Shown piece by piece: positions 10,173-64,000 of a DNA stretch of 64,000 bases. Source of the stretch: a virus. The notes beneath the pieces are model-generated. The model worked only from the letters and a program-made list of their open reading frames with translations, was not told the origin of the DNA and searched no databases. The stretch spans positions 1 through 64,000 of the IMG/VR virus record IMGVR_UViG_3300045988_039227, one strand, 5' to 3'. Every line of letters begins with the position of its first letter. Position 1 is the stretch's first letter. Both the position numbers and the translations under genes were made by a program.

Positions 10173-10201
10173 GGTGAGAGAGATCTCCCCTACCCCACAA
10201 T

Positions 10202-25285: not shown

Positions 25286-25300
25286 CTCGTTTTTATATTT

Positions 25301-25381: not shown

Positions 25382-25394
25382 TAACTTATAAGTT

Positions 25395-29560: not shown

Positions 29561-32500
29561 TTAAAATCCAGGCATTGGTGCCATTGGCGCCATTTTTGGC
29601 ATAGGCTGCATTGGAGCCATTTTAAACATATTACTAGAACTAGTTTTCTTTTCTTCGCCACCTTTCCATGTGTAGCCACCCATCTTAAACACAGTTCCCG
29701 TTACAGTATTATCGAAATACCATCTACCAACCTTGTCATTACCTCTGCTAGAGCCCCATGTTTGTATATTGTTGAGGACCCCAGAGGCTGTCATTAAAGA
29801 TCTTTGCCAACGTGGGAAATATTTATACTTCGAGTCAGACGAAATAATGTCAGTTGGGTTATTTCCTGTTAATCCAGCAGCATCGGCAATAGCCGTAGGT
29901 ACTTCTGTGAACTTTTCTACAGCAGATGTTACGGTTGTAGCAGATTTAACCATATCTACAAACTGGTAGACATTATACAGCTAGAATTGCGAGTCAATAG
30001 TTCTAAACATACACTGGTCTATAAGTCTGAGATAAACTTTCTGATCTATAAAATTCTTTATTGTAGGTAAAGAATCTTCGTAGGTCTTAGGTTTAAGATC
30101 CTTTGTTTCTTCCTGTACATATCTATGAAATGCCATCCACCCTACAGAAAGCAATGCAAGACAAAGCCCCCAGGTCAAAAACTCTTTGAGAGACTTTACT
30201 TCGTTTTTATTAAACTTAACTGGATCTGTAATAGTGGCTTGACGATTAAACATCTACTGATTAAACCATTTAAGTTGAGTATGAGCTCCTCTCATAAGAT
30301 TTACCAATACAGCTGGATTAGCTTCACCAGTACTATAGTCATACATACATCTCTATGCTTTCTGCTCATTTGTTAAAGGTTTGCGAACAGTTTTAGTTTT
30401 AATAGTAGTAGTTCCACCTCTCTGTACTGTTTCTTTTACCTATTCGATCTCCCTTACAACATTATCTGGTGTGTATCCAGCAAACCAATGTTCTGCTCTA
30501 CGTATAAAGAAGTTACGCATTAAAAAGAAGAATTTATGCAAGACATTGTTACTAACAGCTGATTGATCATTTTTTGGCGAGTTACCATTAAGCAATGCCA
30601 TAGTTTGCTATATGGTAGCAGATAGCTTACTGTCCTATACCTAAGCATTAGCATATGACGGTTTAATCTTTGCTATGCCATGATCGAAATAGTAAGCATT
30701 CCACATAGATTCTCCATGGTTATCTTTCCATTCTCTATTAATCTGCTTCTATGTAAGATTACTATTAACCATAAGCCTATCAAACTCAGACTTCGTATAA
30801 AACCCTTCTTTGACAATAGGATTTCCAGGATAATATTTCTTTGCATTATACGTAGCCCTTTGAGCGAGCATATTCATCATATAGTCACCCATTGTGTAGC
30901 CTCCTGTAGCAGATTGCTTTAAAGCCTTTGTAATTCTATTGCGATAAATATCTTTAAACGTCTCATCATTTGTCCTAACGAGGCCATCTTTCTACATCAT
31001 GGCTACAGCTTTACAATTAGCTATAGGATTACCAATATTAGCTAAAGCCTTCATGAGACCAAACCCTGTATAAAGGTATGCTTTCATTAGGTCTTTAAAA
31101 CCAAACTAGTCATTTCTAGCAGCTTGTGCTGGCATCTGTGTGAAAGAATCCCATACACCTACAAACATTGATGGAACGTTGGCAGCAAGCATAAGATAAG
31201 CCGAAACTCCTCTTGTCTTATTTACAAGCTTTGCTGCTGCAATAGCTTTCTTTGAAGGTTTTTCTCCAGGATTATCATTTGTTTCTCTAGATTCGTAAAA
31301 CAATTGTTTTAGCATCTTAGCATATCGCTCTTGCTATCTAGTGCCAGTTCCTTGGTGTTCGGAGTCTCTTGTTTCGTCAGACAAGTTATAACCCAATGTC
31401 TCAAGTTTAGCTTGTACTTTAGACTTATTTACAAAGTTGTTAGCCATATTTACAAACATACCAACAGTATAAGCTAGATCAGAACTAATCATAGAAGGAT
31501 CTTCCATTTCGTTTATAAAACGTGTTGGAGCAGTTTTGAGAACCCATTTACCATTACGCTATACGAAATCACCTTCATCCCTCATGTTTGTATCATCAGA
31601 TGTAGCGCCAGTTGCATTTTGAAGTTTATTCTTAATGAACTTTTTAGGGCTACCCAAAGCTCTGGACCTCTTCATGTCAGAAGTTCCCTCCATCTACGGA
31701 AGTTTAAATCTGTTATATGATGGATCGAGTCCAAGCTTATCCCATTGCTATTCCATCGTTTGTACAAGTAGGTTATAGTACTATGCTCTAGCATCTCCTT
31801 TCTAGATGAATTTAACAAACTCTTTGTCTCCATACTTATCGAAGTCTGGTTGCAAACCACTTCTGTCACCATCATAGAACTTATCGTCGTATATAGAAGA
31901 TATAGATGACCCTTTCTTTGTTGTAAAACGACCCTTAGGAATATATCTTGATGTAGGCTAATTGTTGCCAAACGTAGCACGCTTAGGAATTATCTGAGAA
32001 AATATTGTAAGAGGTACTTGCTTTGATTTCATAGAGCCATCCTTACCTTCCCATGTCTTTGTATACATAAGAATATTCTCAGCTATCCATCTCTCTACAG
32101 ACTATCTATTACCACCAAGTGTAGAGAAGTCTATTGCTATCTTACCATCAAGCGATATATATCTAGGCATCCTGCCATCAAGAGCTGCATCTGTATACTG
32201 TTTAAGTATGTATTCAAACCACGACATAGGTTCTACGCCATTTGGATTGTTGCGTGGGTCAAATTTTGTTACTCCATCTTTAGCTAATTGCATTCCAGAA
32301 GGATCTGTATAAGGAACTTCTCTAATATCAAAAGCGTCTCTAAATTCTTCTGGATCTATACCAGTAGCATTATTCTCTTCATTATTTTTAATATCAGCAG
32401 ATCTTGAATAGAACCACATGTCTGGTATCTTTACTGTACCGTCAGGCTACTAAGAAAAGATTACATTACTAAAATCTTTAACAAAGCCATTCTTTGTCTT

Positions 32501-35500
32501 AATAAGCTTCTTCATTGAACTCTAGAACATTCTCTACAAACTTTCTTTAGCAGACTTATTTTTACCAAAGATGTATTCGAGATATTCTGGGTTTATACCA
32601 TATTCTGAATTAGCATCAATAAACTTATACAGATCCTGCGTAGTTTTTTCTCCAGCTTTAATCTAATCTACTATATTCTGGTACTCTTTATCAAACTCCT
32701 CAAAATCTGTAGAATAGTCTGTTTGTTTAGCTAACCAATTATTCCAAGACTGTATCTCAAGAGCCGTCTGTAACTCATCGCCTTCTTTGAGATTACCTTC
32801 TTGATCAAATGGGTTACCTAAGTCTTGTAAGGCATCCTTCCACATCTACAGTTTCTGATAATCGTGAGGATTAAGCTTTTCTGGGTAGGATAAACCAGTC
32901 TACTTATCTGAACATTTCTATAATAAATAGTTAAGTTGGTCTTGTATATACTGCTGCCTAGAAAGTGTTCTTGGAGATAAACCGTGACCAGTTCTAGTCT
33001 TTGGATCGTAAGGTTTACTCAGACGCTCCATAAAGTATATCTTAGAATATCTTCTGTGCGCATGATCACACAGCCATTCCTCATATCTTCTTTGATATGT
33101 TACATAGTTTGGTTCTTGATCTCCGATCCACTACTCTTCTTCTACAGATGATTCTGTGTCGCTTCTTAAAGTCTCTCCAGTTATAGGGTCTTTATAATAG
33201 AAATAGCCATATTTATCTTGCCATTCTTTATTAAGCTTCTCTTTAAAGTTTTCCTAATCTTGTTTAAACTAACCTCTATTAACAGCTGATCTAAACAAGC
33301 CTGTGAACTCTCCCTTCTTAGGACCGTCTGTATACCTCTCCATCAACATTGTCTACCAGTTTCCTGGAGTAAGGTCATCTATGATAGAGTTGGCTTTATC
33401 AAACGCTTTAGCTATCTACTGCATAACAGGAAGAGATTCTTTTCTAGTCTGTTGATCTGCATCCTGTATCATCTAGAATGCTTGGCGAATAATAGGGCTG
33501 TTCTATCTAGAATAGTTAAAGAATAATGTAAGTTTAGACTCATCTCCATACATATCGTTCTTATGAAGCCAATCTTTAGCTACTGTCTTTATTTTATTCT
33601 TCTCTTCCTCTGACTCGTTAATATACTTATCCACATTTTCATCAACTATTTTATCTGCTACAATTTGTGCGGCATCTTTCCATAATTGATTAATCTATCT
33701 TACTGTAGCATTAAGTGTATCAACATCAGCCTAATCTCTAGCATCGAGATCCATCTAGTTATCAGACAATGTTTTGACAAGATCGTTGTAGAAGTCTATA
33801 ATATTAGACTTCATATCGTGTATCTATTCAGCTGTAAGGCTATCGAAATTATTCTTCTAACATTCCTGCAAGAAGCCTAAAATAGTGTCTCTACGAGCCT
33901 ATAAAATAGTATTGTCAATAGGGTCACGCGCAAACACACCAATGGTCTTTAAAGCAGACTGTATAGCTATTCTTGAGGACTCTTTCTTTTCTTGTGACTT
34001 GAGCTCCTATATTGTAGACCACACTTGATCTTCTCTACGCTGTCTATTAGCGCCCTTGTTAAGCTATTTTTTATAATCCTTGTACAATCCCTAGAAAAGC
34101 TCAGTTATTCTATGATGTATCTGATTAATCTTATCTTCAGAAGCTTGTATTGAAGCTAATCTATCTTTGGCTTCCTTATCAGTTATATTGTCTTCTTTCT
34201 ATTCGTTGTGAGACATAACTGTAAACAAATCGCTAACAGCGGCTTCGTATACATTATCTGAACCAATAAATCCTTTATAGCTTGTAAATATCTAAGAATA
34301 TATTTTCTTTATAGTCTGCTTAATCTTTTCGAACAGTGTTTGTTTACGATTATATTGTATAGACTTTAATTTTTCTACAAATTGCGCATTACTTAATTCT
34401 GCTACAAATTCATACACGTCGCTCAAACCGTAGTCCTACGCATCTTCTCCAAGAGCTTTCTTTGTTTTCTCATAGAGATCTGTAAATGACTTTCTTATTC
34501 TAGAATCATTACCAATCGCATGTTCTGTTACAGCATGTAGCATTTCATGGACGATTGTCTATACTTCAGGCGCTTGCGACTTACTTTCGTTTCTGAATCT
34601 AGCATTTTTGTTTATACGGATAACCTTATCGACTCTATCGTAATGTGCAGCCTCTCCTCCAGGAAGATTATCAACTATTTCATATGTAATTCCAGTCTAT
34701 TTATCATTAAAATACCTATTTACGGCAGCCATAACGAGCTTTAAAGCTGTACTAGATATGCCACTTCTATGAGATTTTAAATACTGCTACAATGTTGATA
34801 TGTCGCCCTTAGAAGGTATGTTAGACAACCTAGTTGCTGCTCCCATATTCGATTCTCCTTGAGAAGATGCATATATGTCATCTGGATTAGCAAACTGTCC
34901 ATTGTTGAATACAGATTTTACCTATGAATTATCTATACATTCATATACAGTATGAGGAGAATACGTTTCGGCGGAAGACCCATAATCAACAACGTTGTTT
35001 ATTATTACGCCATCATGATGAAAATCAGGATTGTAAAAGTGTATATTATTTTTCTAGTATTCCTACTTTATTTGATTTATATCTAAATCCAAATACCTTT
35101 TTATAGTAATAATATTATCTTTTATGTAAAAATTAGCATCTCTATTTTTATTTATGCTAACAGTGACTCCATATATATTAAATTTAGAGAAATCTTTATT
35201 CCTATATCTAGTATAAAGATCTGCTCTTGAATCGGATATTTCTGCATCAGAATAATTAGTGGTAAGGTATGTTTTTTCTAAATCCCTAGTTGATAGTGCT
35301 TTCTATCTTTCTTTTGCATAATATATAAGGTCATCTTCTGATATGCCTTTAAATAATGATGAAAGATATCTAGACTCCATAATATTTTCGTATATTGTTT
35401 TAGCCTATTCGGCACTAAAAACATGAACAATACTATAGATTATATCGTCGAAATTAAATTTTGAATCATATTTGTCGTCATCAAATGGAAGAATATCGTC

Positions 35501-36463
35501 AACAAGTCTATCTTTAAATTTATTTAATTTGTCATCAATTTCGTAATATCTTTTTTCATGAATATTGCTCCAACTATGACCATATGCATCAATTATTTTC
35601 GGGTTTTTGATATTTAAATAGTCAACTTTTATATTATCATAAAGATTATTTTCAAATCTGTTTTTATATTTTTCCGGATTAGCGTTATTATGTATATCAC
35701 TAAAATTGTAAAACGACCCTATTATATCTTCATATACAGAAGTAATTAATTTAAAAGGAACATTTGGATCCTAATACTCAACAAATAGTCCATCTAATTT
35801 TAACAAACAATCTTCTGCGTCTTTTATGTTACCATAATTTATCGCTTCTATAATTTTTTTCTTAAGAATATTATTAAACCAATCAAAATTACGTTTATCT
35901 TTAAAATCAGATTCTTCAACATTGTTCAAAATGCTAATAACAGTCCTTTTGGAATCTGTGTACCACTATGAATATTTTTTTAATGTGGCGTCATTAAACG
36001 ACGATAATATATAACTAGTCACATCGTTATAAGTCGATGACATAGTAATGCTATCTGTATGATATATAGCAGTTTTAAAACCTTCTATATTTGTGTCAAA
36101 CTTCTTAAAATTAGGACTATATTTACTGTTTACTGTATGATATGTAACCTACGGCTCTCCATTCTTATCTACAACTTTAGATACATTTTCTTTATCTTCA
36201 GAAGTCCAATCCCCAAACCATTTAAAGAATTCGTCAGAATATACTTTTGCCTTAAGTATAAGGGCTTGTGTTCTGTCGCCGTTTGCAATATGCAATAGCT
36301 CTCCAAATAATATAGAGTCGGCGCCATTTGGCGCCTTATCTATACTATATCCATTATTTTTGCTCCAGAGTAAATACGCAGTATCCTCATCGAACAAATC
36401 TTTTAATTCACCAAATTCTTTGGCTACTTGTTTATTATGTAAATTAGGACATATTTCTTTCAT
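29561..36463 (-). CDS. giant virion-associated protein, 2300 codons, zincin HExxH motif, C-terminal TM and Met/Pro-rich tail (requires TAG as sense)
   Basis: ATG 36463 overlaps the upstream TAA (TAATG). I checked every in-phase triplet by hand: no TAA/TGA occurs until TAA at 29561-29563, and there are about 56 in-frame TAG. Track fragments 36149..36463, 32663..32845, 32102..32419, 31106..31315, 29981..30253 and 29561..29953 are all in this frame. HEMLH lies at 34536-34550. The C-terminus ends MAPMQPMPKMAPMAPMPGF. Confidence 0.75.
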
Positions 36464-39400
36464 TATTTACCTCCTTTGCAATGTTTTCTAATTCTTTCAG
36501 CTTCTTCTATATCTTCCTTAGTAAGATTAATCTATGCCAAAGCCTACTTCTGCTGTTCTTCTTTAATTAGTGTATTAGCGTAATTATCACCTACAACTCC
36601 TTCTATTGATAATCCGTAGCCAGTATAACCTGCTCTAGTATTTTCCTAAACTGTTGATTTTATGTTAAATCTAGAAAGTAATTGTAAACTAAGCCATTCA
36701 GCAGCCTCTCTAGGTAACGCTGCTTTGCCAAGAGCTATAGCGGATGGGAATACAATTGGTTTACTATTGTCTATTCTTGCAAGCATATGGTTAACCCATG
36801 ATTTAAATGCCATTATATCACCTTGATTATCCTAGAAACATCCATCTTTAGCAAGCCATCTACCAGAAGCATCTTGCTGATTAACTTTTACTACAAGACC
36901 AAACGCATTAGGTGTAATTTTGCCATCACTACCAGTTCTGATGCAAGCTTGATTTGTACCAGTAGCACCAGAGCTTACATTTAATACCGGATTCTAATTA
37001 GCAAAACCTTGCATAGACAAACCTTGCGCCTTAGCATAAGCCTAAGCATTATCTGTGAATACGTACTGTACATTTGGGTGTTGTTGAGGCTAGTCTTTAT
37101 AGAATAACTGTTTGCTTATATACACAGTCTATCCAGAAGGACCTTTACCATCAAGATTAATATTAACAGCACTTTGTGTACTTTGTTGTTCTACAGCTTG
37201 TGATATTGTAGGATATTCTGAATTAGCATTATAGTACATCTAATTGAACCACGACATCCAGTTATTGCGCTGCTCGTCAGTAATATTTGGCTTCATCTGA
37301 CTAAGATAAGTCATAAGTTTACTAAGTTGGTTTTCAATAACTTCTTGACTCATAGGAATTCCATTTATATTTAGGTTAATATCACCAGCTTCGTAGATAT
37401 TAAGACCATCTCTATCTGACCAGCCCCTCTTAGGTAATAACGCATATACGGCACGCTTGGATCCATTAATCATAGCCTCTCCAACCTTTTTATACAATGT
37501 GTATGACGTTGGATCGCTATATACTGCTCCATCATTTCGTACTGATATATACAAAGCATCATGTTCGTGAGAGTCCTTGCTAATTATTACAGCAGGAGAA
37601 TACTAAGCATTGAAAGCGTAATAGTAATCTTTGAATGTAGCTCTGCTTACTAAATCGCTATCCATATAGTTGTTCTAAGCTATAAGATCGTGATTAATTT
37701 CTGGGGCTTCAAGTTGTTCCCTAATATAATCAGAGAATGGCACCGTACTTTCGTCGTGTCTAGCTTCAAGCCAACTCATAGGAATGTATTTAGCTATTTT
37801 ATTAAAGCCCTTTGTATCGCCAGATGTAAGCATTGCATACAATATAAGATCATTCGCAAATCTTCTAACATTAGCCTAATGGTCATTAAGAAGCTCCTCC
37901 CAAGACTCTATAAACATATCAGAAGACATCTTACTCTCATCCATACTATTAATAACGCTTATAAACTTAGGTTTGTTAGTAGGTTTTCCGTTTACAAAAA
38001 CATCCTAATCCTAAATATATGGAGCAAGATGTGATAATAGATAGTTATCTTTTAATCTACCTAAACCGTATGCATCACGCTGAATACAAGCCTGTATAGA
38101 GTTCAATCTATCAAATATTGTAGCATTACCGTCAAATAAACCTTTAACATCAATACCTAAAGACTTAGCTAATCTAAGAGCGTATCTAGCTTTAATCTAA
38201 CTACTAGCAGCCTATGATATCTTCTTCATAGTCTTAGCGTTTCTAAGCAAATCGGACTCTCTGTCATTCGTCTTATATTTAAAGTCATCGGATAAATTGA
38301 TAAGCTATTCCATAAACTAAGGTGTACCCTAGAATGATTGTCCAGCCATAACTCTCATAGGCTCTTGAATAGCGTCTCTTGTTTTCTACTCAATCCAAGT
38401 ACCATGTATAAGATTATTGATAGAGTTCGTATCAAACAGCTAATCAGTTTCTGGGTTTGTAAGATTCTCGTAACCTCTAAGATAAGCTTGCATCTCAAGG
38501 AAATTCTTACCTTGCTTACGAGTATCAATCTTAGTATACTGTACCAAACTATTTAATGCGTTAGAATACTTTTCAAGACACTTCCATGCTATGTAGCAAT
38601 TAACCTAGAAGGCTCTAGCTCTTTCTCCCTCTTCGGTCTAAGCATAGACTAAATCTGGGTTCTTAGCAATCTTCTAAAGCATATCCATATTATTGAGTAC
38701 AGAGTTTACTATCTCTGCTCGTCTAGCTGGTTCGCCTTTAGATTTATTTGGTTCAGTAGCGTCTTTAATATACTAATCGTCTATTGTTTTGCCAGTAACG
38801 CTAGGGAATATCTCTGCGAGTCTCTTATCTCTCATTTCGAAAGCTGACCTAAATACCTTAGGATCTCTAGTAAACTGAGACTTTGCATCAATATCTGCTT
38901 TAGCCATCTCTCTAATAATAGGCTAACATAAGAAATAAAGACCTTGTTTACCCTTACCGTTTCTAGCAAGTAAGTTGATCATATTATATGTAAACCCATT
39001 TACATTAAGCTTAGAGATATATGGATCTTTCACAATATCTACGTGGGCATTAATGAATGCTGATAACCAAGATGAAATCTGATTATTATCTTCATCAAGA
39101 ATCTAATCGAAACCGGTAATACCTGTCATCCGTGTAAAGCTAGACTCTTTAAATTTAACACCATACAATGTTGTAAGAATATGGTTTGTTACATTCAACG
39201 CAAATGGACCAATACCAGTCTTACCTGTAATGTAGTCATTTTTACGGGTAACCTGTTCATGCAGTGTACCAAAGTTGTACGCTACGCTCTTTGTGTTACC
39301 CTGTTCTGGAATCTCATCTGCAATGCTTGTTACAAGCTCTGTATCATTATCGATAGATTTATATAAGATATTAAGTGACTTTTTATCCTTAAGTACTGTA

Positions 39401-42400
39401 AGAATACTTTCTATAATGCTATTCTACAATCCTTCTGCGCTTTCTGGATCAAATTCATAACCTCCATTCTCATTAACATTATAACGTGCTAAATAAAGGT
39501 GGTCTATATCAAAATCCGAACCAGTAATCTTGGTAAACTCAGTTGGAAGTATTACTGTAGATTTAACAGCAGGTACAACATCAACAAAACGTAAAGCATG
39601 TATAGATGACTGAGCCTGTGTAGGAATACGATAACCAATCGTATTAGATGTGGCATTTTCTCCGATTATATTATGATCTAAAAGCCATTGTCTAGCTTCG
39701 TTGTAAGATAAGTTCTTTGGAAGTATATCCTAGAAGTAATCAATAGATATTACAGCATCCATAGAGCCTTCTTCGTTTATCATCTACAATCTCTTACCAT
39801 TATAGATCTCCTATCCTTGTATACCGCCTTCGCCATTTTTGCCTTCTATAGCAAATACTGATCTCTGAATAAACGAGCTACCAGGAGTCATAATGTCAAT
39901 AATATCCTTATTAGCCGCAGATATAAGCATAGACTCCATCCAGCTAGCATCAGCAGTAGATGCAATAGGCGCATTCATTGAGCCCGTCTATGGATTATAT
40001 GTAAGAGCGTCTATAAGATTCTTATTAGCATTTCTTGTGCCAAGTTGCTCTATAAGGTACTCGCTAAGCTTCTTTTGGTCTATAATTCCGTTAGAGTAGA
40101 ATCTATCTTTAAATTTGTCTACACCAAGTTTAGAAAGCTTATTAATAGAGCCCATTAACTTGTCTCTAAGCTGTTCTCCAGTCATGTCGCCATACGTTCT
40201 ATCAAGTCGCAAACTAGATAAACAAACCTTAATCATCTGTGTACCGGCTGCTACAACATCACCTTCCTCTGGATCAGTATTAAGCTGTCTACGAAGCGCA
40301 GATAATCTCTGTGTATAAACGTTCAGCGGCTTACTAATAGTCTCTCCATCGAACTCAGAATGGCCTTGTAGACCAACCTTTACAGCAGATGTCATAAGAA
40401 GATTATCAACCTTATTTTCCTTCATCTTATCATACACATTCTTAAGTTTACCTGTGGCTATACAATCAAATATAGGGAACAACGCAAACTTATTATAATA
40501 TGGAACAGATAAGTTAGAAACCTTCTTTCCATTCGTTGTATGATCCCTAAATCCGTATGCTGTATATTTTGTTGTTACAAGATTCACTTTATTATACACA
40601 AGGTCGTATGCATCTTTTTGATCCATCCACGAATATTTATCAGAACTTTCAAGGATATTAATAGCCTTTGCTACGTCGCCGAATAGCGCACCTCTAGAAC
40701 GAAGCATTCTTTTGCACATATCTGCTGTAATGTAAGATGCACCATCGGCTACATTGATTCCACCAGTATAGGCTTTATAGAAGTTGTTAGCTCTAGTTTC
40801 TATCTTCTTAACAGCATCCTCGCCAAAGTCGTCTACAAGCCTAGCTCTTACTGCGCCTATATCTAAATCATCAACACCTTTAAATCCGTAACGGTTTCCA
40901 TAGATTTCCCTAAGTTCACCATCACGCATCTTCTCTTGGAGTTCGCTCATTACATCGGCATTTGAAGCTACTTCATAGTCTGCTATCTCTGCACATCTAT
41001 AAAGTTCTCCATCTGAACCATCATAGTTTGGCAACGATGGGACGTTGTCATCACCTGTAGACACAAGGCCACCGATACGTTTCTGAATATCCTCTACGTT
41101 CTTAAAGAATCCAGGGTTGCCAATATATAATCTCAAGCATTCTTCTGATGAAATCATACCCCTATTTGTAACATCTTGTAATATAGCTGCTATAGCCATA
41201 CTATACGCTGTACGCTGTAAATTTTGTGTATTAGGCGTTATTCCTTTATCGGTGAGATCTTTATACATCTAAGCGTATAAAGTGCGTTCTACAGCATCTA
41301 TTTGGCTCTAATTAAGGTTTATGTTATTAAGGCCAAGGTAACCAAGCTTTTCATCTTTTGACACTATACCAAGACTAACGGCTTTATCTACCTCAAGTTC
41401 GTACTGCTCCTAAAGTGTTAAAGCCATTATCTACTCTTGCTCTTCTCTAGACTTATCAAAGAACTGTTCATTAAGAGTCTTAAGCTATTCGTCAGGAGAC
41501 ATATTGCTTATTTCGTAGCGTTTAATCTAGCCGTCTTCATACACTCTAAGTGTCGTAAGTGATTTAAACTGAATACCACCAGGCTACTTTCCTTTCTTGC
41601 CGATGTGATAATTCATTATCTTGTCTTCATCATTAAGTACGGGTAAGCCCTTAGGGTTATCTACATGTAAACCAAGTTGTTCTCTACAATCAAGTATAGC
41701 TTCACGCTCTGTATAAGCATATTCGATAAACTGATTTAATACAGATTGATTAGGCTGCAAATAGTAGTGAGAGCTATCTAAGAATATCATCTTTGGTGCA
41801 CCGGATACAGTATAAGCACCATTGTCTAACTACCCGAACTACATTCCAGGGATATTTATACCACCAAGAACCATATATGTACCCTTATCGGCAAGGGTTG
41901 GGAATACACAATATCCATTCTGAAGCATTGCGAACTTATTAATATAATCTTCAGCTTCAGCAAGATTGCTATATTTAGAACCATTGTCACCACGATTATC
42001 AGACTTGAAGCCAATAGGAGTATAAATACTAATATTGAAATCTTCTCCGTTCTGCAATTGCTTTGCAACAATAGAACCCATGTTCACGCCATTATTATTC
42101 ATAATGTTGTAACTAGACTACAAAATAGTCCTTACTACCATATTGTTCTTATCATGACTATTAAGGTTCTCTGTAGTATTGCTAATACTATTGTTCTATG
42201 ACTCGTTATACAGCTTAGTACCATCCATACCATTAGACATCTTATCTGTAGTAATCTTCATATAGGCTCCAGCCCAGTTACCTAATTCGCTAACAAAACC
42301 AGTCTTAAATATCTCGTCTACAGCCTTCTGTGTTGTATAACCATTTGTTTGTACGACTTTGCCGACTGCATCAATAAAACTATTAATATTAGATACACCA

Positions 42401-51948: not shown

Positions 51949-51955
51949 AATTTAA

Positions 51956-53401: not shown

Positions 53402-53409
53402 TCCTATCA

Positions 53410-55011
53410 TTATCTCAATCTTAAGCTAGTTATATTGTATGGGTTGTAATCAAATATACCTCCAGCCCATGTTGGTAAGAATAATCCATTAGGACCAAAT
53501 CCGCCAGTATAATCGCTAGAGAAATTAATTCTCTCATACGGCGTACCAAATGCGCCTCTCTAGTATTGCTCTTTAGATTTAGCCCAATTTCTTGTATACT
53601 TTGCAGAATCGGCAACTTTATCTGGATCTATGTACCAATACTTTCCATATGGTGCCTTTAAATTATTTAAAGAATAATCATCATATTTTAAATCAAGCAC
53701 ACCTCTATTTATTCCTGTGTCCTAATTTGGTACATTAGGTGATCCAGAAAACAACTAATACTTACCAGGAGTCCAACCTGGAGCTATGTTTTTATAATTA
53801 ATAGAGGTTGATCCAGGTGTATTGTCTGCTTTGTTTGTAGATCCGCCCTTTATACCATCTGCACCTATACCGTATATTGCTTTTAAAGCAGCATTCTTAT
53901 TATCTATATCCTATTGATACATATCAAGAATATCGCCATACTGCTTGTTTTTAATACGCTGAGACAGCCATTTCTGACCAATAAGACCAAGGTTAGACAA
54001 GTGTGTTTCAATACCCTTAGTCTTAGCGCCGTGTGCTCTATTATAAGCCTCCCATCCATATTGGTTAGACTGCTGTAATCTCTATGCGTCACTATCACCA
54101 AGTCTAGCAGCCATTTCGGCATAAGCGTTTCTATATGCAGCGTTCTTCTCCTGCACATTCATTAGCGCATCTGCAACGTTTCTCTAATTACCCAAAGCTA
54201 AGGCTACTCTATTAGCCTATCTTTGACCACCTGTATAACCACCAGAATTAGCGAGCTAATAAGCAGCCTATCTATCTTGAGCGTACAGCTTTTCAAGAAT
54301 AGGATTAGCTGATACTCTATTACCAGCCATAGTCTGTAAAGCTATTGGCGCGTATTTATTAGCTGCATATATATTTGGCATTACAGGATTTTCTCTACGC
54401 CAATGATTAAGCATCTGTGTTTCAAGCAGCGCTGGGAATGCATATCCTGCATCAAGCATAAGATTTGACACCTTTCCTTTACCTGATTTAGACCAACTCG
54501 AAATAGCCTATTTTGTTTTATCCCATAAGCTTTTGCCATTATCAAATCTATCTTTGCCACAATTATGCTTAATCTGAGCTGCATAATCCTCGATCTAATG
54601 CTACTTCTCTTGTCTATCTGTAATATTCTTCATAGCCTACAAAATAGGGGCTTTAGCGCGATCCAGCTGATTCTTCTAAAGTTCCATCGTCTATTTTGAT
54701 AAAGAGCTAAGTTCGGATTTCTTTCCAGCTCTTTTCTCAATGTTGTTATACATCTAAAGCTTTGCTGTTAATGGGGCTATTTGATCAGAAAATTTCATAC
54801 CGTTGCTCCAGTCTACATCATTACCAGCTATAACATTATTATCGTTTACACTAACAGAGCTAGGCTAATTATCAACTCCAACCTTTCCTTTGGTTACAAG
54901 AGTTCCTGTGCCATTAGTATAATCTATAATGGACTCCCCTTTGCCAACTAAACTATTTACAGGACCACTCTAATATCCATTAGGTGTCCATACTTTATTT
55001 CCTTTTAACAT
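53410..55011 (-). CDS. virion module protein, 533 codons (TAG as sense)
   Basis: ATG 55011 (MLKGNKVWTPNGY...) follows an in-frame TAA at 55021-55023. The phase-checked reading reaches TAA at 53410-53412. It contains track fragment 54268..54471. Confidence 0.7.
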
Positions 55012-55705
55012 ATCTTGGTTTTATTAAATCTTTTCCTCGGTTGGCGTATAATACATCATCATACGTGTTACCATTATCTAAATAATATTGCTATGTAAGA
55101 CCTTCTGTTGCAGCTGATGATTGATTAACCTAGTTAACAAGATTAACTTTCTATTGCGCATTAAATATTTTTCTACGCTGTCTTTCTCTAGCTTTCTTAC
55201 TTCCAAACAGACCTCCGAATAATCCTGTGATGGCTCCAACCGCTCCACCTATAACAGTTCCAAGTCCAGGGAAACAGGAACCTATAGCAGCTCCTGCAGC
55301 AGCTCCAGATCCAACCATGCCTAACGTTGCGTTTCTGTTTGACTTGGATATATCTTCCATTGCTTTCTGTCTGTTAATATCATTCTACGCTTGGTAGTTT
55401 ACACCAAATGCCTAGTCTGTTCTTTGTCCAGAGTAAGCCATAAGTTCATTTGATCCCTTTACTGCGTCCTACATGGAATTATATCCCTGTATCATTCCTA
55501 TTGTGCCATTAACAGCTCCTGTTACTGCACCAGCGCTTATTCCGCCTCCTCCGAAATTTGTACTGCTAGGAATTTTCATTCCATTTATTTCTTTAATTGT
55601 TGGTAAAGATGTCAGCTATTGCTTATACGTATTAATTCCAGATATATCACCACCAATACTCTTTACACTACTTGATAAGTCTATACCATTATTGTATTTT
55701 GGCAT
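54995..55705 (-). CDS. Gly-rich protein with a glycine-zipper TM segment, 236 codons (TAG as sense)
   Basis: Phase-checked. Contains GMVGSGAAAGAAIGSCFPGLGTVIGGAVGAITGLFGGLFG. An alternative start is ATG 55738. TAA stop at 54995-54997. Confidence 0.6.
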
Positions 55706-55728
55706 ATTATTTATCTTCTTTCTCTATT

Positions 55729-58700
55729 TTAGCTCCATGACTATCTATATTTTGTTATTATATATTGTATTGCCATAGCTGGATTTGGTTTTATATCTTC
55801 TATACTGCAAATCATAACCTTGCCTCTAGCTCTATTGCCAAATAATCCATCAGCCCTAGGTATGGCAAATCTATGATTATTTTCTCTAAGTGTTATCTGC
55901 GCTTCTAGGTTGGATTCTATCTTCTAAGATTCTGTCTACCATACGTATTTATGATTCTTTGAAAAATAATCATCCTAATCAGATATCATTGCCTATAACT
56001 ATAGGTTTTCATATGTAACAATTTCTTGATTATCAAACACCTTTGTAACAAGCGGCTATTGAGCAACAACGTATTTAACGTAGCTTGAAAGCAGCTGCTG
56101 AGTTGTTGATTTAGGTGATCCATCAAGGTAGTCATACTAATATATGCATACGGTATCGTTTTTCTTTACAAGATATTCTCCGTTAAAGAACTGTATAGCT
56201 CCATCAAATGGTATTGTTAATGTTGATGTAAACTTGCCAAGCATTTCGTTGTACACAATCTACATATCATTACTTAAGACATTAAATACAACTTCATTAT
56301 ATCTATTATTGTAGAACACCTTAAAGTTGTAGTCCTTTTTATACTTGTTCAGTATATTCTATACTTTACCTTGCTTTGAAAGCTATGTTACACTCTATCC
56401 ATCAAACAAACAAATTACATTATTATGACTATCAAACCAATACAAACCACCGGTAGTGCATGCTGCACAGAATTGCTGTTTATGCATTCCATAGGTATTG
56501 CTGTAGTAGTCGTATCTATCAAGTACTCCTCCTGTTCCGAGCACTATGTTTTGCCCAGAGTTGTCTGTAGCAACACTACGGTCATTAACACTTAATATGC
56601 CAAACGATTGTTCTTGACAAAATGTAAGAACATTCTTAAATGTGCATATATCAGTTATAGGACCATACTCCTGATCAACATCTATAAAGTTAGAGCTTCT
56701 AAATTTACACCAACTATCTATGATTTCATCATTTTGTTTCAAATCAGAATAATATACTCTTGTATCTATAGTTTTATTATAATCTTGTGGATTAAGATCA
56801 TCGTATACAGCAAGTGGAATACTTGTATTCTATACACTATAGACAGAATTATAAACATACTCTGGCTCCTTTTGTACGTAAGCCTCGGTTATCTCGCATG
56901 GTTCAGCCTATATAAAAGATGCATAGTTATCTCTTGCATTAGAACTGAATGTCCATCCATATTGGAACTTGCACCATATATTTGATTCTGTTGGTATAGA
57001 GTATGTTATCATATGTGTGTTAGGGAACTATAACTCATCTTTTCCGCCCTTTGTATAAGCTCCGTACACTTTGTGCATGGATGTATATTCGAATGTCTCT
57101 ACATGACAATCTCCGTCGAATACGGTATTCCAATCGTTTTTAGACTCGAAGTAGTTACCGTCTCCGTAATATATATTTGTAAGTCTATTTGTAAACGAAT
57201 ACCCGCCATAAGGAGTTATTTGCTATCTAAGATTAGTTAAATAAGTTCCAAGTAGAGTCGGCCTAATTATCTTGAGTATTTCACCAATTTCACCAGGTTC
57301 TGTCTAATATGCTTCCTGTTTAAAACTATCGTAATAATTGCCATTCTCTGGATAATAATAAGAAGTTGCACCAGCTGTACCATTTTCTTTGTACTAGCAG
57401 CTCAACAGTAAACATTTTCCGCCAGTTCCAAAACATGCGTTTTTATTACCATGCTTACCAGTTCCATCGCCTTTAAATCCACCATTATAATTACCAAATG
57501 ATTCAAATATATTGCCATTAGTGTCATTACAAATGCCACCGGTAACCATATTTGCAAACAGCGCTCCTCCAGCAGAAACTGCATAGTTAGGATAAGATTT
57601 TGATGATGCCTATTCGTCATTATCTTTATTAAAGTTTCTTTTGAATGCCTAATCCCATTTTATCTGGTCAACTAACTAAAAGTCTTGTATATACTATGTT
57701 CTCTAAAACGCATTATTCCACCAATCACCTGGATCAAAAACACCAGTACTAAATTCGTATGGCTAAGTGCTCTATTCATACAATTTTATATACGCAAAAG
57801 CTTTCTGTATTATAAATTTACCAGCTTTTTCCTACCTTTTGTCTGCCGACTCATTATCCTTATTGTATAGTCTATCAAAATTTAAAATACAATCTTTAAC
57901 CAAAGAGTATGAATAAGGTCTCACATTTCCCAATCCGCCAATTGTTCCGGAATCTAAAATATTATCTATAATTTCGTTGCCAGTATTACCACCTCGTGCT
58001 TTATGTGATTGTGGATTCACTTTATAGAAGTAGCTAGGATTATATGGTGTATCTAAATAGCATATTGTACTGTCTTTGCTAAAATGGCTATCTACAGTTA
58101 AATCATTAACATAAAATATTCCTCTTGAATCATCACTATCTTTTGGACCAGGAAATAGCTCTACGGCACAGTTTGATATACATGGTATTATAAATTTGAA
58201 GCTTGTCCTACCATTAAAGCCTCTTAAGCTTCCATAATCTGTATTTGTTTCACCATCCCTATGTGAATCATATTGGTTGTCTTTAAACTTATAATCTCCT
58301 CTAGCTCCAAACAAAAAAGACTGTTTTTGCAAATAATATTTTTTGTCTTTTGTAAATTGTTTAAATGATTCTGGCTGATAACAAATTTCTTTTGAGACAA
58401 ATTGCAATAATTTATCATTATCTATATTTGTCATACACTGTGATGAAAGATCGTCTCCGTCTCCAATAAGCTATTTGAGTGAATTATATCCTTCTATAAA
58501 CTTGTTGGTTGTTAAAAATCCGGTTGGGCAAAACATATGATATTTCGTTACCTGATACTCGCCATTTGCTTCATATTGCTTACTATACGTGTTAGACACA
58601 GGAGAGCTAAGTACACCTTGTGATATTGTAGCAATATCAGATTCGTGTCTAGCGCATCTAACTATCTGATAGCCAGTACATCCTTCTGGCAAACTTTTTA

Positions 58701-60441
58701 TCATGAACTATATTCCTAGATTTCTGATAACTAGTTCATAACGTTTACCATTAACAATAGTATTTGATGACATCAACTAAAAGCCTTCTTCTGTAACATT
58801 TGGAGTTCTTATATCAGCGATCCATTTAACTGGGGATGCTTGGCAATATTTATCATACAAAACAATTCCATAACGATAAATCTCGTTTCGTCTAAGTGAC
58901 TTTATTAACCATGTGTTGTTATTTATTCCTGGATCAAATTCTGCTTTCTCTATTTCAGATGGTTTAAAATCTTTATCTATGTAAAAGACGTTGTTCTACT
59001 TTACGTTTTCTTTTTGAGAATAATTGTACAATGTTCCTATTTTTCTTGTATTATTCTCTTTTACGCAGGAGTCTTCAACCTAAGGGCTTATAACAAATCT
59101 CCATTCTATGTTTTTACCAGATCCACCTACCCATCTATATTTTGAATCGAATACAAAATTAGCAGAATATAATGAAGCTTCTTTATTTATGTTATTATAA
59201 GTATCATCATAACAATCGTGATCAAATGGAGGAACGGCAACGGAGTCACTTTCTATGTCGTATTTGTGCGCATCTATTGTAAATGTGTCATTACCATTAA
59301 CATCTGTTACGATACTTTTGTTTTCGTAATTGAACCTAAATGCTCTCGCGTCCCATTTATCGAAATCCTTAATAGTAGTCTGTATTGTCTTTGTGTTTGC
59401 AGCAAACAGGAAACCATCTTTAGACGCTAATGAGTTAGGTATTATTCTAACACCTTGTAATGAATTTAACTCTTCGACACTGATCTATTCTATTGGATCA
59501 TTGCCAACGTCGTTTATTATTAATTCCGAAGAATTATATTCATCAAAATTTATTTTAGCATCGTATATCACAGATACTATTGGCATCTATCCGTTTTGTG
59601 TATACTGTACCCTAAATACTTTGATGTAATCAAGGTGCCAATAATCGCTAGGAATTTGTATAGATATCTTTACTCCACAATTTGATTGCGCGCCCTATTT
59701 GCCACCGCACTTTACATATTTGCTATCGAAGTCATAATTACCAATTGGTATTTGCTGACATTGTATAGATGCTCCCGTATGTATTCCGTACCTATTGTAT
59801 AACTGGTAACAATAGCTTACAACACCAAACTCTATCTTTCCTGGCACATACTCTTCAAATACTGGCGGTTTACAAACCGCTTCTGGATAAGATAAACATT
59901 TGTTAAGATCACTGTATATTAAAGGATCATCTCTATTTATATTAAAAACCATTATCGGATGCTTAGAGTCAGCCAAGTATAGCTTGATATTATTTTCGCT
60001 CTCATAATTAAGCTAAATATCAAACACATCTGGATACTTCTCTCCTTTATCTAAAGGTAATAATTCTGCATCTACAACAAGTTTACTCTTCTATATATCG
60101 TTGAAGTCCTGGTCGTGCACTGTTCCACCTATCGCATTTTTAAAACTATAGACCTTAAGTCTGTTTTCATTTTCATCAACGCAAACAACTACTCCATAAT
60201 CTCTTATTGAACCAGTAGCAACAACTTTGTTACCCTCACCAGCAAGTAATCCAGCTAGCTTTACACCCTAGACTGGCATTAATGATCCATGTCTATTATC
60301 TCTACCTTCTCCACCTCTGTATGATGATATTTTTATATTTCTAGCATCAATATACTAGTTTGTAGCAACAACAGAGAGATCATCATCACTATTTAATCCT
60401 CCTGCGAAACTATTAATTTGTGGTTCAGTATTAGTATCCAT
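55729..60441 (-). CDS. large virion structural protein, 1570 codons (tail hub/nozzle-type role inferred from position only; TAG as sense)
   Basis: ATG 60441 follows an in-frame TAA at 60460-60462. The phase-checked reading reaches TAA at 55729-55731, with about 38 in-frame TAG. It joins track fragments 59695..59976, 58471..58704, 57832..58434 and 56395..56742. Confidence 0.7.
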
Positions 60442-61249
60442 AGCAATAATCGTTAAAGTTTAACTATTTCTTTCCGGTGTTATTGAAGAAGTTCTCATCA
60501 TCATCCCATTCTGGTATAAGCTTAGTCCACTCATTCTTAATAGTGAGCATCTCACTTTCGTTTGGCATCATTGCCTCAGCGTAAGCCTGGTTTCTATAGA
60601 AATTCCACTGCTGCTATATATAGAAGTATGTGTTCTAATTGTATCTAGCTTTTCCTCCAAGTGATCCTCTAAGGAATTTTGGGAAGCTTAACTTCATCAT
60701 TACGTACCAGTATATAGCTTCCTAATATGAAGCTAAGTCTGGAATAAGTGGGTAACCCCTTTCATCTGTAGCTATTGCCTTGTATGACAATTTAACAAAG
60801 CCTTTGTCTTTATTAAAGACTATCCAACCTGGTTTAATCCAGTATGTAGGAACATCTATTTTCTTGTCTCTAATAGCATCCATCAGCGCAGTGCTACCAT
60901 TGATGCCAAGAAGCTATGATCTATGCGTAATCAACGGTACGCCAGCAGGCTACTCTGGATGATGGTGATGCATAGGTTTTGTATCAGCCTTAGACTTAAA
61001 TGAGCTCTCATCTTTTAGTGCCTATACCCAATTTGTTCCATTGTTTGAATAGGCTACAGTTGTCAATGATTCTAAGTCTTCTGGTATTGGAACTTGATGT
61101 TCGTGTATTTCAAATATTGGAACGCAATCTTCACCAGACTCCTTCTATACATACTATACAGGGGCACCAATTTTTTCAACAGCTTCAAAGATCCATTCTC
61201 GTATATCTGTAATACGCATGTTCTTTTCTTGCATGTTTGAGTCAGCCAT
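60431..61249 (-). CDS. virion module protein, 272 codons (TAG as sense)
   Basis: ATG 61249 (MADSNMQEKNMRITDIREW...) lies 20 nt after the upstream TGA. The phase-checked reading reaches TAA at 60431-60433. Confidence 0.65.
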
Positions 61250-61268
61250 AATTTTAGCTATAACTGAC

Positions 61269-61739
61269 TCACATTTTGTATACTTGTATATCATCTATAT
61301 TTATATAATCTTGTTTATTAAATATAAGTTGAGCAAGGTGCCTTTTGTTTTCCCTAACCATACATAGCTAGTATTTATATCTATCAGAAAACATCCTGGG
61401 TATTTTTGACCAATATAATCTATATTTATATCCATTAGAGTGCTCGTTTAAATGATAAACCCTTTTGCCTACTTCTTTAGTTGATTTGTAATCTGTAGAC
61501 AATGACTAACTAGAGTAGCTCTTTGGTTTATATTTTACTATGCATACAGTGCCTAGCCCATAAGGCATTTTAAAGGGCTGTGAGCGCTCTAAAATTTCTT
61601 CCTTGACAACTTTATTAAATTCGTCTATAATGCGCTTATATCGCGCGTAATTAAGCTCTACATCGTTCTTTTTAATGTAGTCTCTATATATATCAGCTAT
61701 TGTGTAGCTTTTCTTATTCTTCCTTATCTTGAGGACCAT
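61269..61739 (-). CDS. IHF/HU-like DNA-bending protein, 156 codons (2 in-frame TAG)
   Basis: The beta-arm-like motif FKMPYGLGTVCIVKYKPK resembles the HU/IHF sequence LPGFGTFxVxxR. After TAG read-through at 61506 the ORF ends at TGA 61269-61271. Confidence 0.55.
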
Positions 61740-62406
61740 TTGGTTTAACGCTTGCTAATGTTGAATTATTGCTATCGTCACTAGGTCTTTTTAACATAAA
61801 TGCCAATTCGTTGGTCATGATAGCTCTTTTTATGTCAGGTATCATCCACCCAGGTATTATTACATCATCTTCACTATCAGCCGTTTGCGTTGGATCAAAT
61901 ATTCCTGTAACGTATATATATTTAAAATTTTCCACACCATCACCATCAACATATATATACTAGTCGTCAAACCAACATATTGGCTCGTTGTATGTATATC
62001 TCCTAAAGTTATGATAATGTTTTCTAGACTTATTCATGATCTAGATAACACAACCGCTAATATCTGCAACATTAACTATGTCGTCGCTACTATCTTCCAT
62101 TGTGTACAATTTCTTTTTTGTTCTCTTCCTTGTACTACAATGACAGCAACAAGAGTCCTCTGATCCAGGAGTTGGATCGTCTATAAGCTCAAGTGGTCCA
62201 ATGGTTGATAGCTAACTATCATCTGGATCTTCATCATCTCCAGTTTCAGAATCTTTATCATTCTACTTCTTGGACAAATAGGCCTTATACTACATTATCC
62301 AAGATAAGATCTAATCCCTAGACATATCCTCGCTCTCGCTTATGTTATTATTTCGTACAATAAGAAGTATGTCATCTATCAATGTACGAGCTGAGAATGT
62401 TTTCAT
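61714..62406 (-). CDS. acidic virion module protein with a CCCHC cluster, 230 codons (TAG as sense)
   Basis: ATG 62406 overlaps the upstream TGA (ATGA). The phase-checked reading reaches TAA at 61714-61716. The track entry 61714..61935 starts at an internal GTG. Confidence 0.6.
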
Positions 62407-63068
62407 ATTGCTTCTATTATTCTTATACTATCTTCTTTAAGTATATCATTTGTATTATGTATCTTATATTTATACACATCTTTCTTTTTCCAGTCAAATG
62501 TTATTAATCTCTTAAAGAAGTTCTTTTTGTTCTTATATTCTCTATGCTTATAAATGTAGAGGTACTAAGTATTCTATACATCTAGCTTAATATTAACACT
62601 ATCTTTACCGATTGTATAGTATACTTTAGTTAGGTTGTTATACTGTAAACTATCTCTGTAAACAGAGTCTTTAAGTATAGTTATAATATTACCCCCTACC
62701 CCCTTACTTTTATTAACGTTTATAATCTACTTCTAAGTTGCTGCTACCTAAATTTCTTTACTCTTTAGCTTCTCTACTTTGCGTACAGAGTCCAACTACT
62801 ATACAAGCTTATCATTATAATCTTTAAGCTTTTTCATGTCTAGCCTTAAAACACCAGAAGCCTACTAGGCACCATTTAAGGCATCCTAATAGGCTTCGAT
62901 GTTATTATTAGCCATTTTAAGCTCCTCTGAGAGCCTATTAGCTTTGTTGTGGTAGAATATACCAGACGCTAAACAAAAGGCTATTAGAAGCCCAGCAATG
63001 GCGTTAAGCAGCGTTTTGTAGTTGTTCTTTATCTTGTTTAATATCTACTACATCAGCATTGCTTTCAT
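62403..63068 (-). CDS. spanin-like protein (N-terminal TM plus coiled coil), 221 codons, 12 in-frame TAG
   Basis: Translation is MKAMLMQQILNKIKNNYKTLLNAIAGLLIAFCLASGIFYHNKANRLSEELKMANNNIEAYQDALNGAQQ.... The phase-checked reading reaches TGA at 62403-62405. It overlaps the holin-like gene by 65 nt. Confidence 0.5.
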
Positions 63069-63309
63069 TATTGTTCAAATATTCTTTTAAATATGTTTTT
63101 ATCTCACCAAACTTACCTTGTATATAAATAGATACTCCATAGATACTAGCTGAATAAACTAATGTTTGGGCTACAAACCCTAGTACACCTGTGGAGATTT
63201 CACCCTACTATAAATACTGTACCCAGGTGAGAACCTAACCGCTCAAGAACGCGAGACATGCGGTTGAATACTAAATTTTCTCGCGCCATGTTCCTGTTAC
63301 TTTGCTCAT
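63004..63309 (-). CDS. holin-like small membrane protein, 101 codons, 4 in-frame TAG
   Basis: ATG 63309 overlaps the lysin-like gene's TGA (ATGA). Hydrophobic segments are YSTACLAFLSGQVLTWV and GVLGFVAQTLVYSASIYGVSIYI. TAA stop at 63004-63006. Confidence 0.5.
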
Positions 63310-63731
63310 TTTATCTCAATAGTTACCTTTCCTTTAGCACAAGCATCCTTTATAATTGGATAGAACTTGTTTATGGTAGCTCTTGAGTTAAGGACCATTC
63401 CAACTTTCTTATTTTCCCCAAGCAGCAAACAACCGGCCGTATCTTCATGTGTTGAGCCAGCGTGTATACGAATACCTTCAAATGATGGTACATTCATCAG
63501 TTGAGGAGTATACTTCTTAAATCTAGGCGAATAGGTCCACTTAATCTCATAAGTTCCGTAAGGTATTGCTGTTTTGGCATATACCTTTTTCTCTCCGTTA
63601 TCAAATTTACCGTTCTTATTAAGATCTCTAACTGTATCTTCAAGTGTGTCGCAAAAATAATTACCATCAATATATAATCGTCCGATGGTATACGTAGAGC
63701 GTAAGGCTATTCTTTTAAGTGTTAATTTCAT
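63306..63731 (-). CDS. DUF5675-like / YkuD-fold-like putative cell-wall hydrolase (endolysin candidate), 141 aa, no in-frame TAG
   Basis: This is an intact ORF in the track. The motif GIRIHAGSTHEDTAGCLLLG resembles the H...GC catalytic signature of L,D-peptidase folds. It lies immediately upstream of the holin- and spanin-like genes. Confidence 0.5.
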   Translation of the reverse strand: MKLTLKRIALRSTYTIGRLYIDGNYFCDTLEDTVRDLNKNGKFDNGEKKVYAKTAIPYGTYEIKWTYSPRFKKYTPQLMNVPSFEGIRIHAGSTHEDTAGCLLLGENKKVGMVLNSRATINKFYPIIKDACAKGKVTIEIK

Positions 63732-64000
63732 TAATAATTAAGCGTATAGGGGCATACGAGTACACCGTTGTCAATATGTATTAAACGCACATGTATATTA
63801 TATTGCAGGTTAAAGCTATCTATAGACGTAAGCTTAGGGCCACCCTAAGTTGTTTTCATCACTTTAAATAAATTTTTGTAGTCTCCTGAAGATAATTTTC
63901 CTCCCATCAAACCACATGGATACATGTCTAAGACATTTCCTATAGAACTATAATCGTACCAATCGGAAATACTATAATTACCTGATGTATCTAATAAAAC
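63731..64000 (-). CDS. C-terminal part of a late gene that enters from beyond the window (1 in-frame TAG)
   Basis: The frame is open from 64000. It ends ...VCPYTLNY* with TAA at 63731-63733 overlapping the next ATG (TAATG). Confidence 0.5.

Follow-up and report, generated by a model that had tools for sequence, protein, structure and literature searches.

The stretch of viral DNA analysed here, 64,000 nucleotides (nt) corresponding to positions 1-64,000 of the IMG/VR record IMGVR_UViG_3300045988_039227 (the window), raises the question of how the proteins of its minus strand between positions 29561 and 64000 are encoded. This late block carries virion, lysis and virion RNA polymerase genes and extends past the right end of the window, which itself covers about 60% of the approximately 105-kb genome of a crAss-like phage. 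The standard code (code 11) splits the block into 313 fragments with a median length of 25 codons. An initial annotation of the same DNA had expected more than 200 such pieces and had claimed that the block is readable only with TAG as a sense codon, tentatively glutamine (Gln, Q). Both the fragmentation and the sense reading were borne out by the analysis described below, and the TAG codons of the late genes were found to correspond to Gln.

When TAG is taken as a sense codon, the minus strand of the block resolves into 13 consecutive genes arranged back-to-back. The first twelve stop-to-stop open reading frames (ORFs) comprise 2302, 5163, 498, 537, 285, 1577, 290, 174, 241, 224, 104 and 144 codons, and the 13th is a 90-codon piece leaving the window at its right end; the respective numbers of in-frame TAGs are 56, 124, 23, 18, 11, 38, 10, 3, 7, 12, 4, 0 and 1. 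With the starts assigned, the 13 gene models comprise 11,495 codons, of which 300 (2.61%; 2.40-2.43% for the largest three genes) are in-frame TAGs; an in-frame TAA or TGA is absent, and all 12 complete genes are terminated by one of these two codons. As TAA and TGA together make up 7.4% of the off-frame codons, the absence of both from 11,495 codons has a probability of about 1e-386, and chance is excluded as an explanation of the open late frames. The coding density of the block under code 15 is about 100%. On the minus strand, the standard code yields 39 ORFs of at least 100 amino acids (aa) with a total length of 16.7 kb and a maximum of 427 aa, compared with 51.1 kb, including one ORF of 5,163 codons, when TAG is sense. 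Reassignment of TGA (code 4), the third code in the comparison that the initial annotation had proposed as a check, was rejected, with 27.8 kb in such ORFs and thus no gain comparable to that of TAG. The four fragment ends cited there as examples (39988, 41269, 37240 and 32102) all represent an in-frame CTA on the plus strand, and the overlaps of start and stop codons described there occur as TAATG or ATGA at five gene junctions. Its count of 13 genes ending only at TAA or TGA holds for the 12 complete genes; the last piece is incomplete, and one complete gene, at 63306-63731, is readable under either code because it carries no TAG. The sign of the GC skew flips at about 30 kb, coinciding with the switch of the coding strand.

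The short ORFs obtained by standard-code gene calling are what would be expected if TAG were a true stop codon and the block consisted of decayed or fragmented genes or of an assembly artefact. Against decay, the frame is held through 300 TAGs at the probability given above, and protein-level conservation in related phages, including those using the standard code, continues downstream of the TAGs. Uninterrupted orthologues in the standard-code phages cr10_1, cr50_1 and cr118_1 align across many TAG positions of the window, and their orthologues of the largest late gene product extend over 4,461-4,947 aa without interruption. Moreover, independent assemblies from several studies contain the same sequence, and related contigs of about 100 kb number in the hundreds. 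The frame statistics and the homologue alignments have thus already refuted this explanation, to which we assign a negligible probability. Accordingly, TAG is a sense codon in the late block of the minus strand.

The identity of the inserted amino acid, which the initial annotation had only adopted from known recoded gut phages, was addressed by two comparisons at the DNA level. In homologues from the protein catalogue searched, 89% of the residues opposite the 38 TAG sites of the 1,570-aa late protein are Q; these homologues were set aside as circular evidence, because the catalogue proteins had already been predicted with TAG read as Q; codon comparisons and standard-code genomes were therefore used instead. 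In the first comparison, orthologous codons of the related phage Burzaovirus faecalis cr124_1 were collected from genes whose products are 76-97% identical, considering only sites flanked by identical residues. The TAG codons of the window are matched there by TAG in 60 cases, by CAG in 18, by CAA in 6 and by other codons in 5, so that 24 of the 29 changed sites carry one of the two standard Gln codons. The pattern is mirrored by CAG and CAA, which are matched by TAG and by one another equally often; AAG, GAG, TAT, TAC, TGG and TTG take no part in such an exchange. The second comparison made use of the standard-code members of Suoliviridae cr50_1, cr10_1 and cr118_1, whose corresponding genes contain no in-frame TAG. 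Among 364 TAG sites aligned to these phages, the tabulation of aligned residues suggested by the initial annotation gave Q as the commonest partner (12.9% compared with a background of 3.1%), the corresponding value for true Q sites being 17.9% in the same alignments. A likelihood ranking with substitution frequencies drawn from these alignments placed Q ahead of E and K, the next candidates, by 62 nats. In an alignment with the RNA polymerase gp66 of Cellulophaga phage phi14:2, Q stands opposite two TAG sites. On this comparative evidence, the TAG codons of the late genes correspond to Gln, and they provide 44% of all late-gene Gln codons (TAG, CAA and CAG).

A sense codon for another residue, either pyrrolysine or one of Tyr, Glu, Lys, Leu and Trp, whose codons are one base change away from TAG, would have some observations in its favour. 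In cr124_1, a few TAG sites have AAA, GAA, CAT or TAT as their counterpart, E and K are the next commonest partners in distant homologues, and the program ARAGORN labels the cognate phage tRNA described below as tRNA-Pyl, a default given to any tRNA with a CUA anticodon. These points are outweighed by the 24 of 29 non-identical partners that are CAG or CAA, the latter two changes away from TAG, and by the likelihood, which prefers Q to the non-Gln residues by the margin stated. tRNA-Pyl has an atypical shape, and its odd features are missing from the canonical cloverleaf of the phage tRNA, which resembles a Bacteroidia tRNA-Gln; in addition, the scanned ORFs revealed no pyrrolysine biosynthesis genes (pylS, pylBCD). 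A residue other than Gln is accordingly regarded as very improbable.

The tRNA in question is encoded in the same phage genome. The search with an early protein of the window yielded metagenome contigs of about 105 kb from ENA and JGI, two of which (L005 and L007) share all overlapping nt with the window (12,347/12,347; 100%, no mismatch). Both encode a tRNA(CUA) located 5.9 kb to the left of window position 1, on the strand of the late genes and near its head, where it is flanked by a tRNA-Met and a dUTPase gene. This tRNA(CUA) folds into a canonical cloverleaf with ordinary stems, a D loop containing GG and a standard T loop (GGTTCGAATCC), and the orthologous gene of cr124_1 is annotated as tRNA-Gln. 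The 19-nt D arm of the tRNA was detected at 12 genome loci, five of which lie within tRNA-Gln genes, two of these from Bacteroidia/Bacteroidales; the tRNA(CUA) has the D arm, the T arm, the U1-A72 pair and A73 in common with these two tRNA-Gln(UUG). By this resemblance, the suppressor probably derives from a Bacteroidia-type tRNA-Gln. Within the 64-kb window itself, neither ARAGORN, run with and without introns, nor Rfam revealed a tRNA(CUA); the tRNA-type matches comprise a tRNA-Met, a transfer-messenger RNA (tmRNA) and an unusual tRNA, containing a 31-nt insert, that ARAGORN designates Ile(GAU). In a relative from a Hadza metagenome (L006), the tRNA(CUA) gene at 1653-1914 of the minus strand carries, after position 35, an insert of about 190 nt that matched group I introns at a score below the threshold (25.5 bits, E 2.8e-4).

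The recoded late genes stand beside a replication and regulation block on the plus strand (1-29479) that is written in the standard code. Its 41 ORFs contain no in-frame TAG in 7,478 codons, in comparison with about 195 expected at the late-gene rate, and they are terminated by TAA in 27 cases, TGA in nine and TAG in five (5/41; 12%). The deduced products include a DnaB-like helicase, an AAA_24 (RecA-like) ATPase, a Toprim primase, an AAA ATPase, a PD-(D/E)xK nuclease, a DNA polymerase and a sigma factor of the ECF type, along with a tRNA-Met and the tmRNA. Within the window, the module-specific recoding claimed by the initial annotation is therefore clear-cut; it is not strictly bound to one strand throughout the genome. 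A plus-strand gene for a protein of 156 aa, located 2.3 kb to the left of window position 1 (6094-6564 of contig L005), contains five in-frame TAGs that are conserved in four relatives, and cr124_1 has one extra TAG where this genome encodes Q. These conserved codons indicate that recoding also extends beyond the late strand. Furthermore, a small gene on the late strand, near the head of that strand and upstream of the suppressor tRNA gene, contains four TAGs. The gene preceding the TAG-rich plus-strand gene specifies a small protein with an HESFH (HExxH) motif. The ECF-type sigma-70 factor is encoded in the standard-code block at 10178-10759 (+), and the adjoining gene ends with a TAG stop codon, beyond which a suppressor would extend reading by 24 codons into the start region of the sigma factor gene.

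TAG thus functions as a sense codon corresponding to Gln, its usage is split between modules, and a tRNA(CUA) is encoded in the same genome. How these components act together is suggested by published models. Glutaminyl-tRNA synthetase (GlnRS) of the host would charge the suppressor with glutamine, the charged tRNA would compete with the host release factor 1 (RF1) at UAG, and full-length late proteins would become possible only after the suppressor has accumulated, so that recoding would act as a translational gate delaying late and lysis functions. The distribution of TAG in the gene for the spanin-like protein is consistent with such gating: 12 of its 13 Gln-family codons (TAG, CAA and CAG) are TAG, a fraction of 0.92 in comparison with 0.44 overall (binomial p = 4e-4). 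A bias of this kind was reported for lysis genes of crAss-like phages (Borges et al. 2021; 10.1101/2021.08.26.457843).

Several observations have to be weighed against this explanation. The suppressor tRNA lies outside the window, and its aminoacylation identity is deduced from a resemblance found in a search seeded with its own D arm. In a further relative with an identical early protein (L004), no suppressor was detected within the 20 kb fetched, and neither release factor nor aminoacyl-tRNA synthetase genes were found among about 20 plus-strand ORFs including the largest. Gln, with TAG included, accounts for 6.0% of the residues of the late proteins and for 3.1% of those of the early proteins, a value that is high yet not implausible. 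The support obtained for this phage is DNA-based, and peptide proof of TAG-to-Q translation comes from two other crAss-like phages (Peters et al. 2022; PMC9523058). The timing model is also blurred by the gene with four TAGs upstream of the tRNA gene and by the plus-strand gene with five.

These two genes would also suit a scenario in which recoding is real and serves no temporal gate, the suppressor being present from the start of infection and the absence of TAG from early genes reflecting ancestry, module exchange or drift of codon usage. The late genes are indeed a mosaic, since the tail proteins are 87-97% identical and the giant proteins 23-36% identical to their cr124_1 counterparts, which points to modules with separate histories, and the sequence itself does not fix the timing of tRNA expression. 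On the other hand, the contrast between no TAG in 7,478 early codons and 2.6% in the late genes is very sharp for a single genome, the use of TAG as the stop codon of 12% of the early ORFs works cleanly only without the suppressor, and the almost fully TAG-coded spanin-like gene matches a convergent bias of lysis genes reported across phage lineages. Recoding without a gate is hence considered unlikely. The explanation combining a replication block in the standard code, TAG as a third Gln codon of the late genes, decoding by the phage tRNA(CUA) and a proposed translational gate is held with high confidence.

For the comparison with known systems, the 'Delta' group of crAss-like phages is taken to be equivalent to Suoliviridae. 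Code-15 phages of the crAss-like type agree with the present case in the codon, the amino acid, the phage order and the 'Delta' group, in the location of recoding mostly in structural and lysis genes along with replication genes in the standard code, in a phage-encoded tRNA(CUA) and in the preferential recoding of a lysis gene. There is no essential difference; the TAG-rich gene on the replication strand and the spanin-like gene with TAG at 12 of 13 positions are details of the phage studied here. Recoding from a stop codon to sense via a suppressor tRNA in late genes is also a property of the Lak, Jade and Agate phages and of some crAss-like phages using code 4 (TGA-to-Trp), which differ in the codon and the amino acid; some of them carry genes for release factors or tRNA synthetases, none of which were found among the plus-strand ORFs tested here. 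In Escherichia coli, the amber suppressor supE is derived from tRNA-Gln. Suppressors of this type likewise combine a tRNA-Gln body with a CUA anticodon and insert Gln at UAG in competition with RF1; in contrast, the tRNA described here is encoded by the phage and is needed at hundreds of obligatory sense codons, not for occasional suppression. A survey of crAss-like phages listed 243, most of them from Beta, Delta and Zeta, with TAG-to-Gln or TGA-to-Trp recoding, the former mostly in late genes (Yutin et al. 2021; PMC7886860). The recoding of late genes from TAG to Gln is therefore real and already known for this phage group, because the RefSeq records of the relatives are annotated with TAG read-through and the phenomenon was described by Yutin et al. 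(2021), Borges et al. (2021) and Peters et al. (2022).

The deduced gene products of the late block, all encoded on the minus strand, are consistent with a virion and lysis module. The last gene of the block (29561-36463; 56 TAGs, TAA stop) encodes a protein of 2,300 aa with an HEMLH (HExxH) motif that aligns to standard-code relatives over 894-953 aa and is about 23% identical to its counterpart in cr124_1. It is preceded by the gene for a giant protein of 5,161 aa (36463-51948; 124 TAGs, TAA stop) containing a predicted virion RNA polymerase domain. This protein matches the DNA-dependent RNA polymerase gp66 of phage phi14:2 (PDB 6VR4) with an E value of 1.3e-19 and conserves the catalytic motif GSDFDID, and a Pfam scan assigned it to no family. 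Two late proteins of 484 aa (51956-53410; 22 TAGs), with homologues in relatives, and 533 aa (53410-55011; 18 TAGs), 76% identical to the cr124_1 orthologue, are followed, in the direction of increasing coordinates, by a glycine-zipper protein of 247 aa (54995-55738; 8 TAGs) whose cr124_1 orthologue is annotated as 'peptidoglycan-associated protein'. The virion structural ('stabilization') protein of 1,570 aa (55729-60441; 38 TAGs) is 87% identical to that of cr124_1; its database homologues carry the PF25729 and PF25731 domains, and tblastn matches were obtained in 50 records, all of Crassvirales.

Further towards the right end of the window, a protein of 287 aa occupies the position of the tail tubular protein (60431-61294; 9 TAGs; phrog_33740, E 1.7e-65), and its equivalents in cr50_1 and cr10_1 are annotated as 'putative tail tubular protein'. 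The following 156-aa protein (61269-61739; 2 TAGs; phrog_12177) is located at the position of the IHF/histone-like protein, the equivalents being annotated as 'topoisomerase, histone-like DNA-binding' in relatives. Next to it lie the genes for a virion structural protein of 230 aa (61714-62406; 6 TAGs; phrog_9863), for the Rz-like spanin candidate of 221 aa (62403-63068; 12 TAGs; phrog_739, E 1.4e-4) and for a small hydrophobic protein of 101 aa (63004-63309; 4 TAGs) that is holin-like by position and sequence only. The TAG-free gene at 63306-63731 encodes a putative transpeptidase or endolysin-like protein of 141 aa (phrog_1501), the orthologues of which are annotated as 'putative transpeptidase' in cr124_1 and cr7_1. 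Several of the phage families matched by the small late proteins have no assigned function. The C-terminal 89 codons at 63731-64000, with one TAG, belong to a gene of about 2,500 aa that starts beyond the window, as judged from cr124_1, in which the gene for gp19 (2,497 aa, 60 TAGs) neighbours the transpeptidase gene upstream.

By its signature genes and its nearest records, the phage is assigned to the order Crassvirales, family Suoliviridae, subfamily Oafivirinae, in the vicinity of Burzaovirus. The genes supporting this placement encode the virion RNA polymerase of the gp66 type, the stabilization, tail tubular and IHF-like proteins, the DnaB helicase and the primase; TerL, portal and major capsid protein genes lie outside the window. 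The nearest records are B. faecalis cr124_1 (NC_055899.1) and Burzaovirus coli cr7_1 (NC_055895.1), with which synteny is kept across the regions compared; a megablast search with a 20-kb query matched only 6.2 kb at a DNA identity of 86%. The tmRNA, the tRNA-Met and the tRNA(CUA) are common to both relatives and the present phage, and the protein-coding sequences of the two RefSeq records are already annotated through TAG, among them the orthologue of the stabilization protein (36 TAGs) and the gp19 coding sequence in cr124_1 as well as a coding sequence of 5,443 aa in cr7_1. The window is nevertheless distinct from both records: relative to cr124_1, identity drops to 31-36% in the giant RNA polymerase protein and to about 23% in the last large one. 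Along the late block, the mosaic thus consists of the giant genes (29561-51948), whose products are 23-36% identical, and of the tail and lysis genes (53410-63731, excluding those of the 484-aa and 533-aa proteins), whose products are 87-97% identical.

Additional genes with a possible connection to translation are located in the standard-code block. The region 4463-4825 (+) encodes an early protein of 120 aa with the C-terminal domain of ribosomal protein L7/L12 (PF00542, E 3.6e-9), a component of the ribosomal stalk that recruits translation factors. The tmRNA (8850-9206, +) is of the permuted type (Rfam RF04321, 64 bits), specifies the tag peptide DNVNNIVDYTNVA and is likewise annotated in cr124_1. 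Two adjacent tRNA-like genes are situated at 25182-25383 (+), the first of which (Rfam tRNA, 40.9 bits) contains an insert of 31-33 nt in the anticodon loop, below the size of a group I intron, and the second of which comprises an acceptor stem and a T arm only. They differ from the tRNA-Val pair found at the same place in cr124_1, with which no alignment was obtained, and homology to that pair was rejected.

A stretch of 2.1 kb in the same block, at approximately 13280-15370 (+) between the ORFs 12840-13241 and 15368-15961, is free of ORFs. Stop codons of all three kinds are present in all six frames, by which a gene in another genetic code was rejected, and no support for a replication origin was obtained either, significant repeats being absent. 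No Rfam family matched at E values of up to 0.1. The stretch is 91% identical to the corresponding sequences of cr124_1 and cr7_1, and patches with 70-87% identity occur in other genera of Oafivirinae, in which the stabilization proteins are 26-32% identical; DNA matches were absent from the other subfamilies. An ORF-free gap exists at the same place in cr124_1, cr130_1, cr131_1, cr273_1 and Bohxovirus. A conserved pair of motifs was detected in 92 copies in IMG/VR, mostly on contigs of crAss-like size (about 50-105 kb), and the 75 copies with full flanks formed 25 clusters at 90% identity, 24 representatives of which show a median pairwise identity of 56%.

The stretch also shows strong covariation of base pairs. 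The first 200 nt or so can be folded into five helices with conserved loops and covarying stems. In a plain MAFFT alignment of this part, 85% of the cells form pairs, in comparison with 33-49% when the 3' partners are slid; changes on both sides were observed in 20 of 24 pairs as opposed to 2-9 in the slid controls, and the observed score was reached by none of 500 shuffles. Complete pairing of stem halves is far more frequent with their own partners than with the partners taken from other variants. For the whole region, RNAalifold predicted 171 pairs from 13283 to 15371, of which 94% are canonical compared with 33-47% in slid controls, with 714 double-change cells compared with 98-158, a comparison that is inflated because RNAalifold selects such pairs. 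Helix counting over the whole alignment against column shuffles gave an enrichment of about three- to fourfold and was abandoned as too noisy in favour of the helix-specific tests. The G-U pairs point to an RNA on the plus strand. Accordingly, the stretch represents a candidate for a very large structured RNA, of which no prior description was found in the literature. A near-invariant hairpin at 15329-15371 (+), ATATCGTTAG..TAACGATAT followed by CAAAAAGGAT, immediately precedes the start of ORF 15368-15961; it may form the final helix of the large RNA or, alternatively, serve as a translational operator.

TAG recoding is present in every Oafivirinae genome checked, and since these belong to a single clade, a link between the RNA and recoding is only a lead. 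The code switch might be part of a larger, phage-borne kit for the reprogramming of translation in Oafivirinae, the candidate parts of which may be the tRNA(CUA), the permuted tmRNA, the protein with the L7/L12 domain, the two odd tRNA-like genes and the 2.1-kb RNA. The large RNA or the L12-like protein would then help to read UAG as sense or to resist RF1, and the TAG-saturated spanin gene and the TAG-rich plus-strand gene would be the specifically gated targets. We regard this idea as speculative and unlikely.

For the annotation of these phages, which form an abundant group in the gut, the practical consequence is that without the reading of TAG as Gln in the late module, about 34 kb shatter into some 300 fragments. 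Public resources, namely the RefSeq coding sequences of the nearest relatives and the protein catalogue used here, already read TAG as Q, and the present analysis adds a clean and quantified case in which this reassignment is deduced from DNA alone, together with an independent confirmation of the preferential recoding of a lysis gene. The recoding of the late block opens no new question by itself; one could arise from the large covarying RNA of the replication block.

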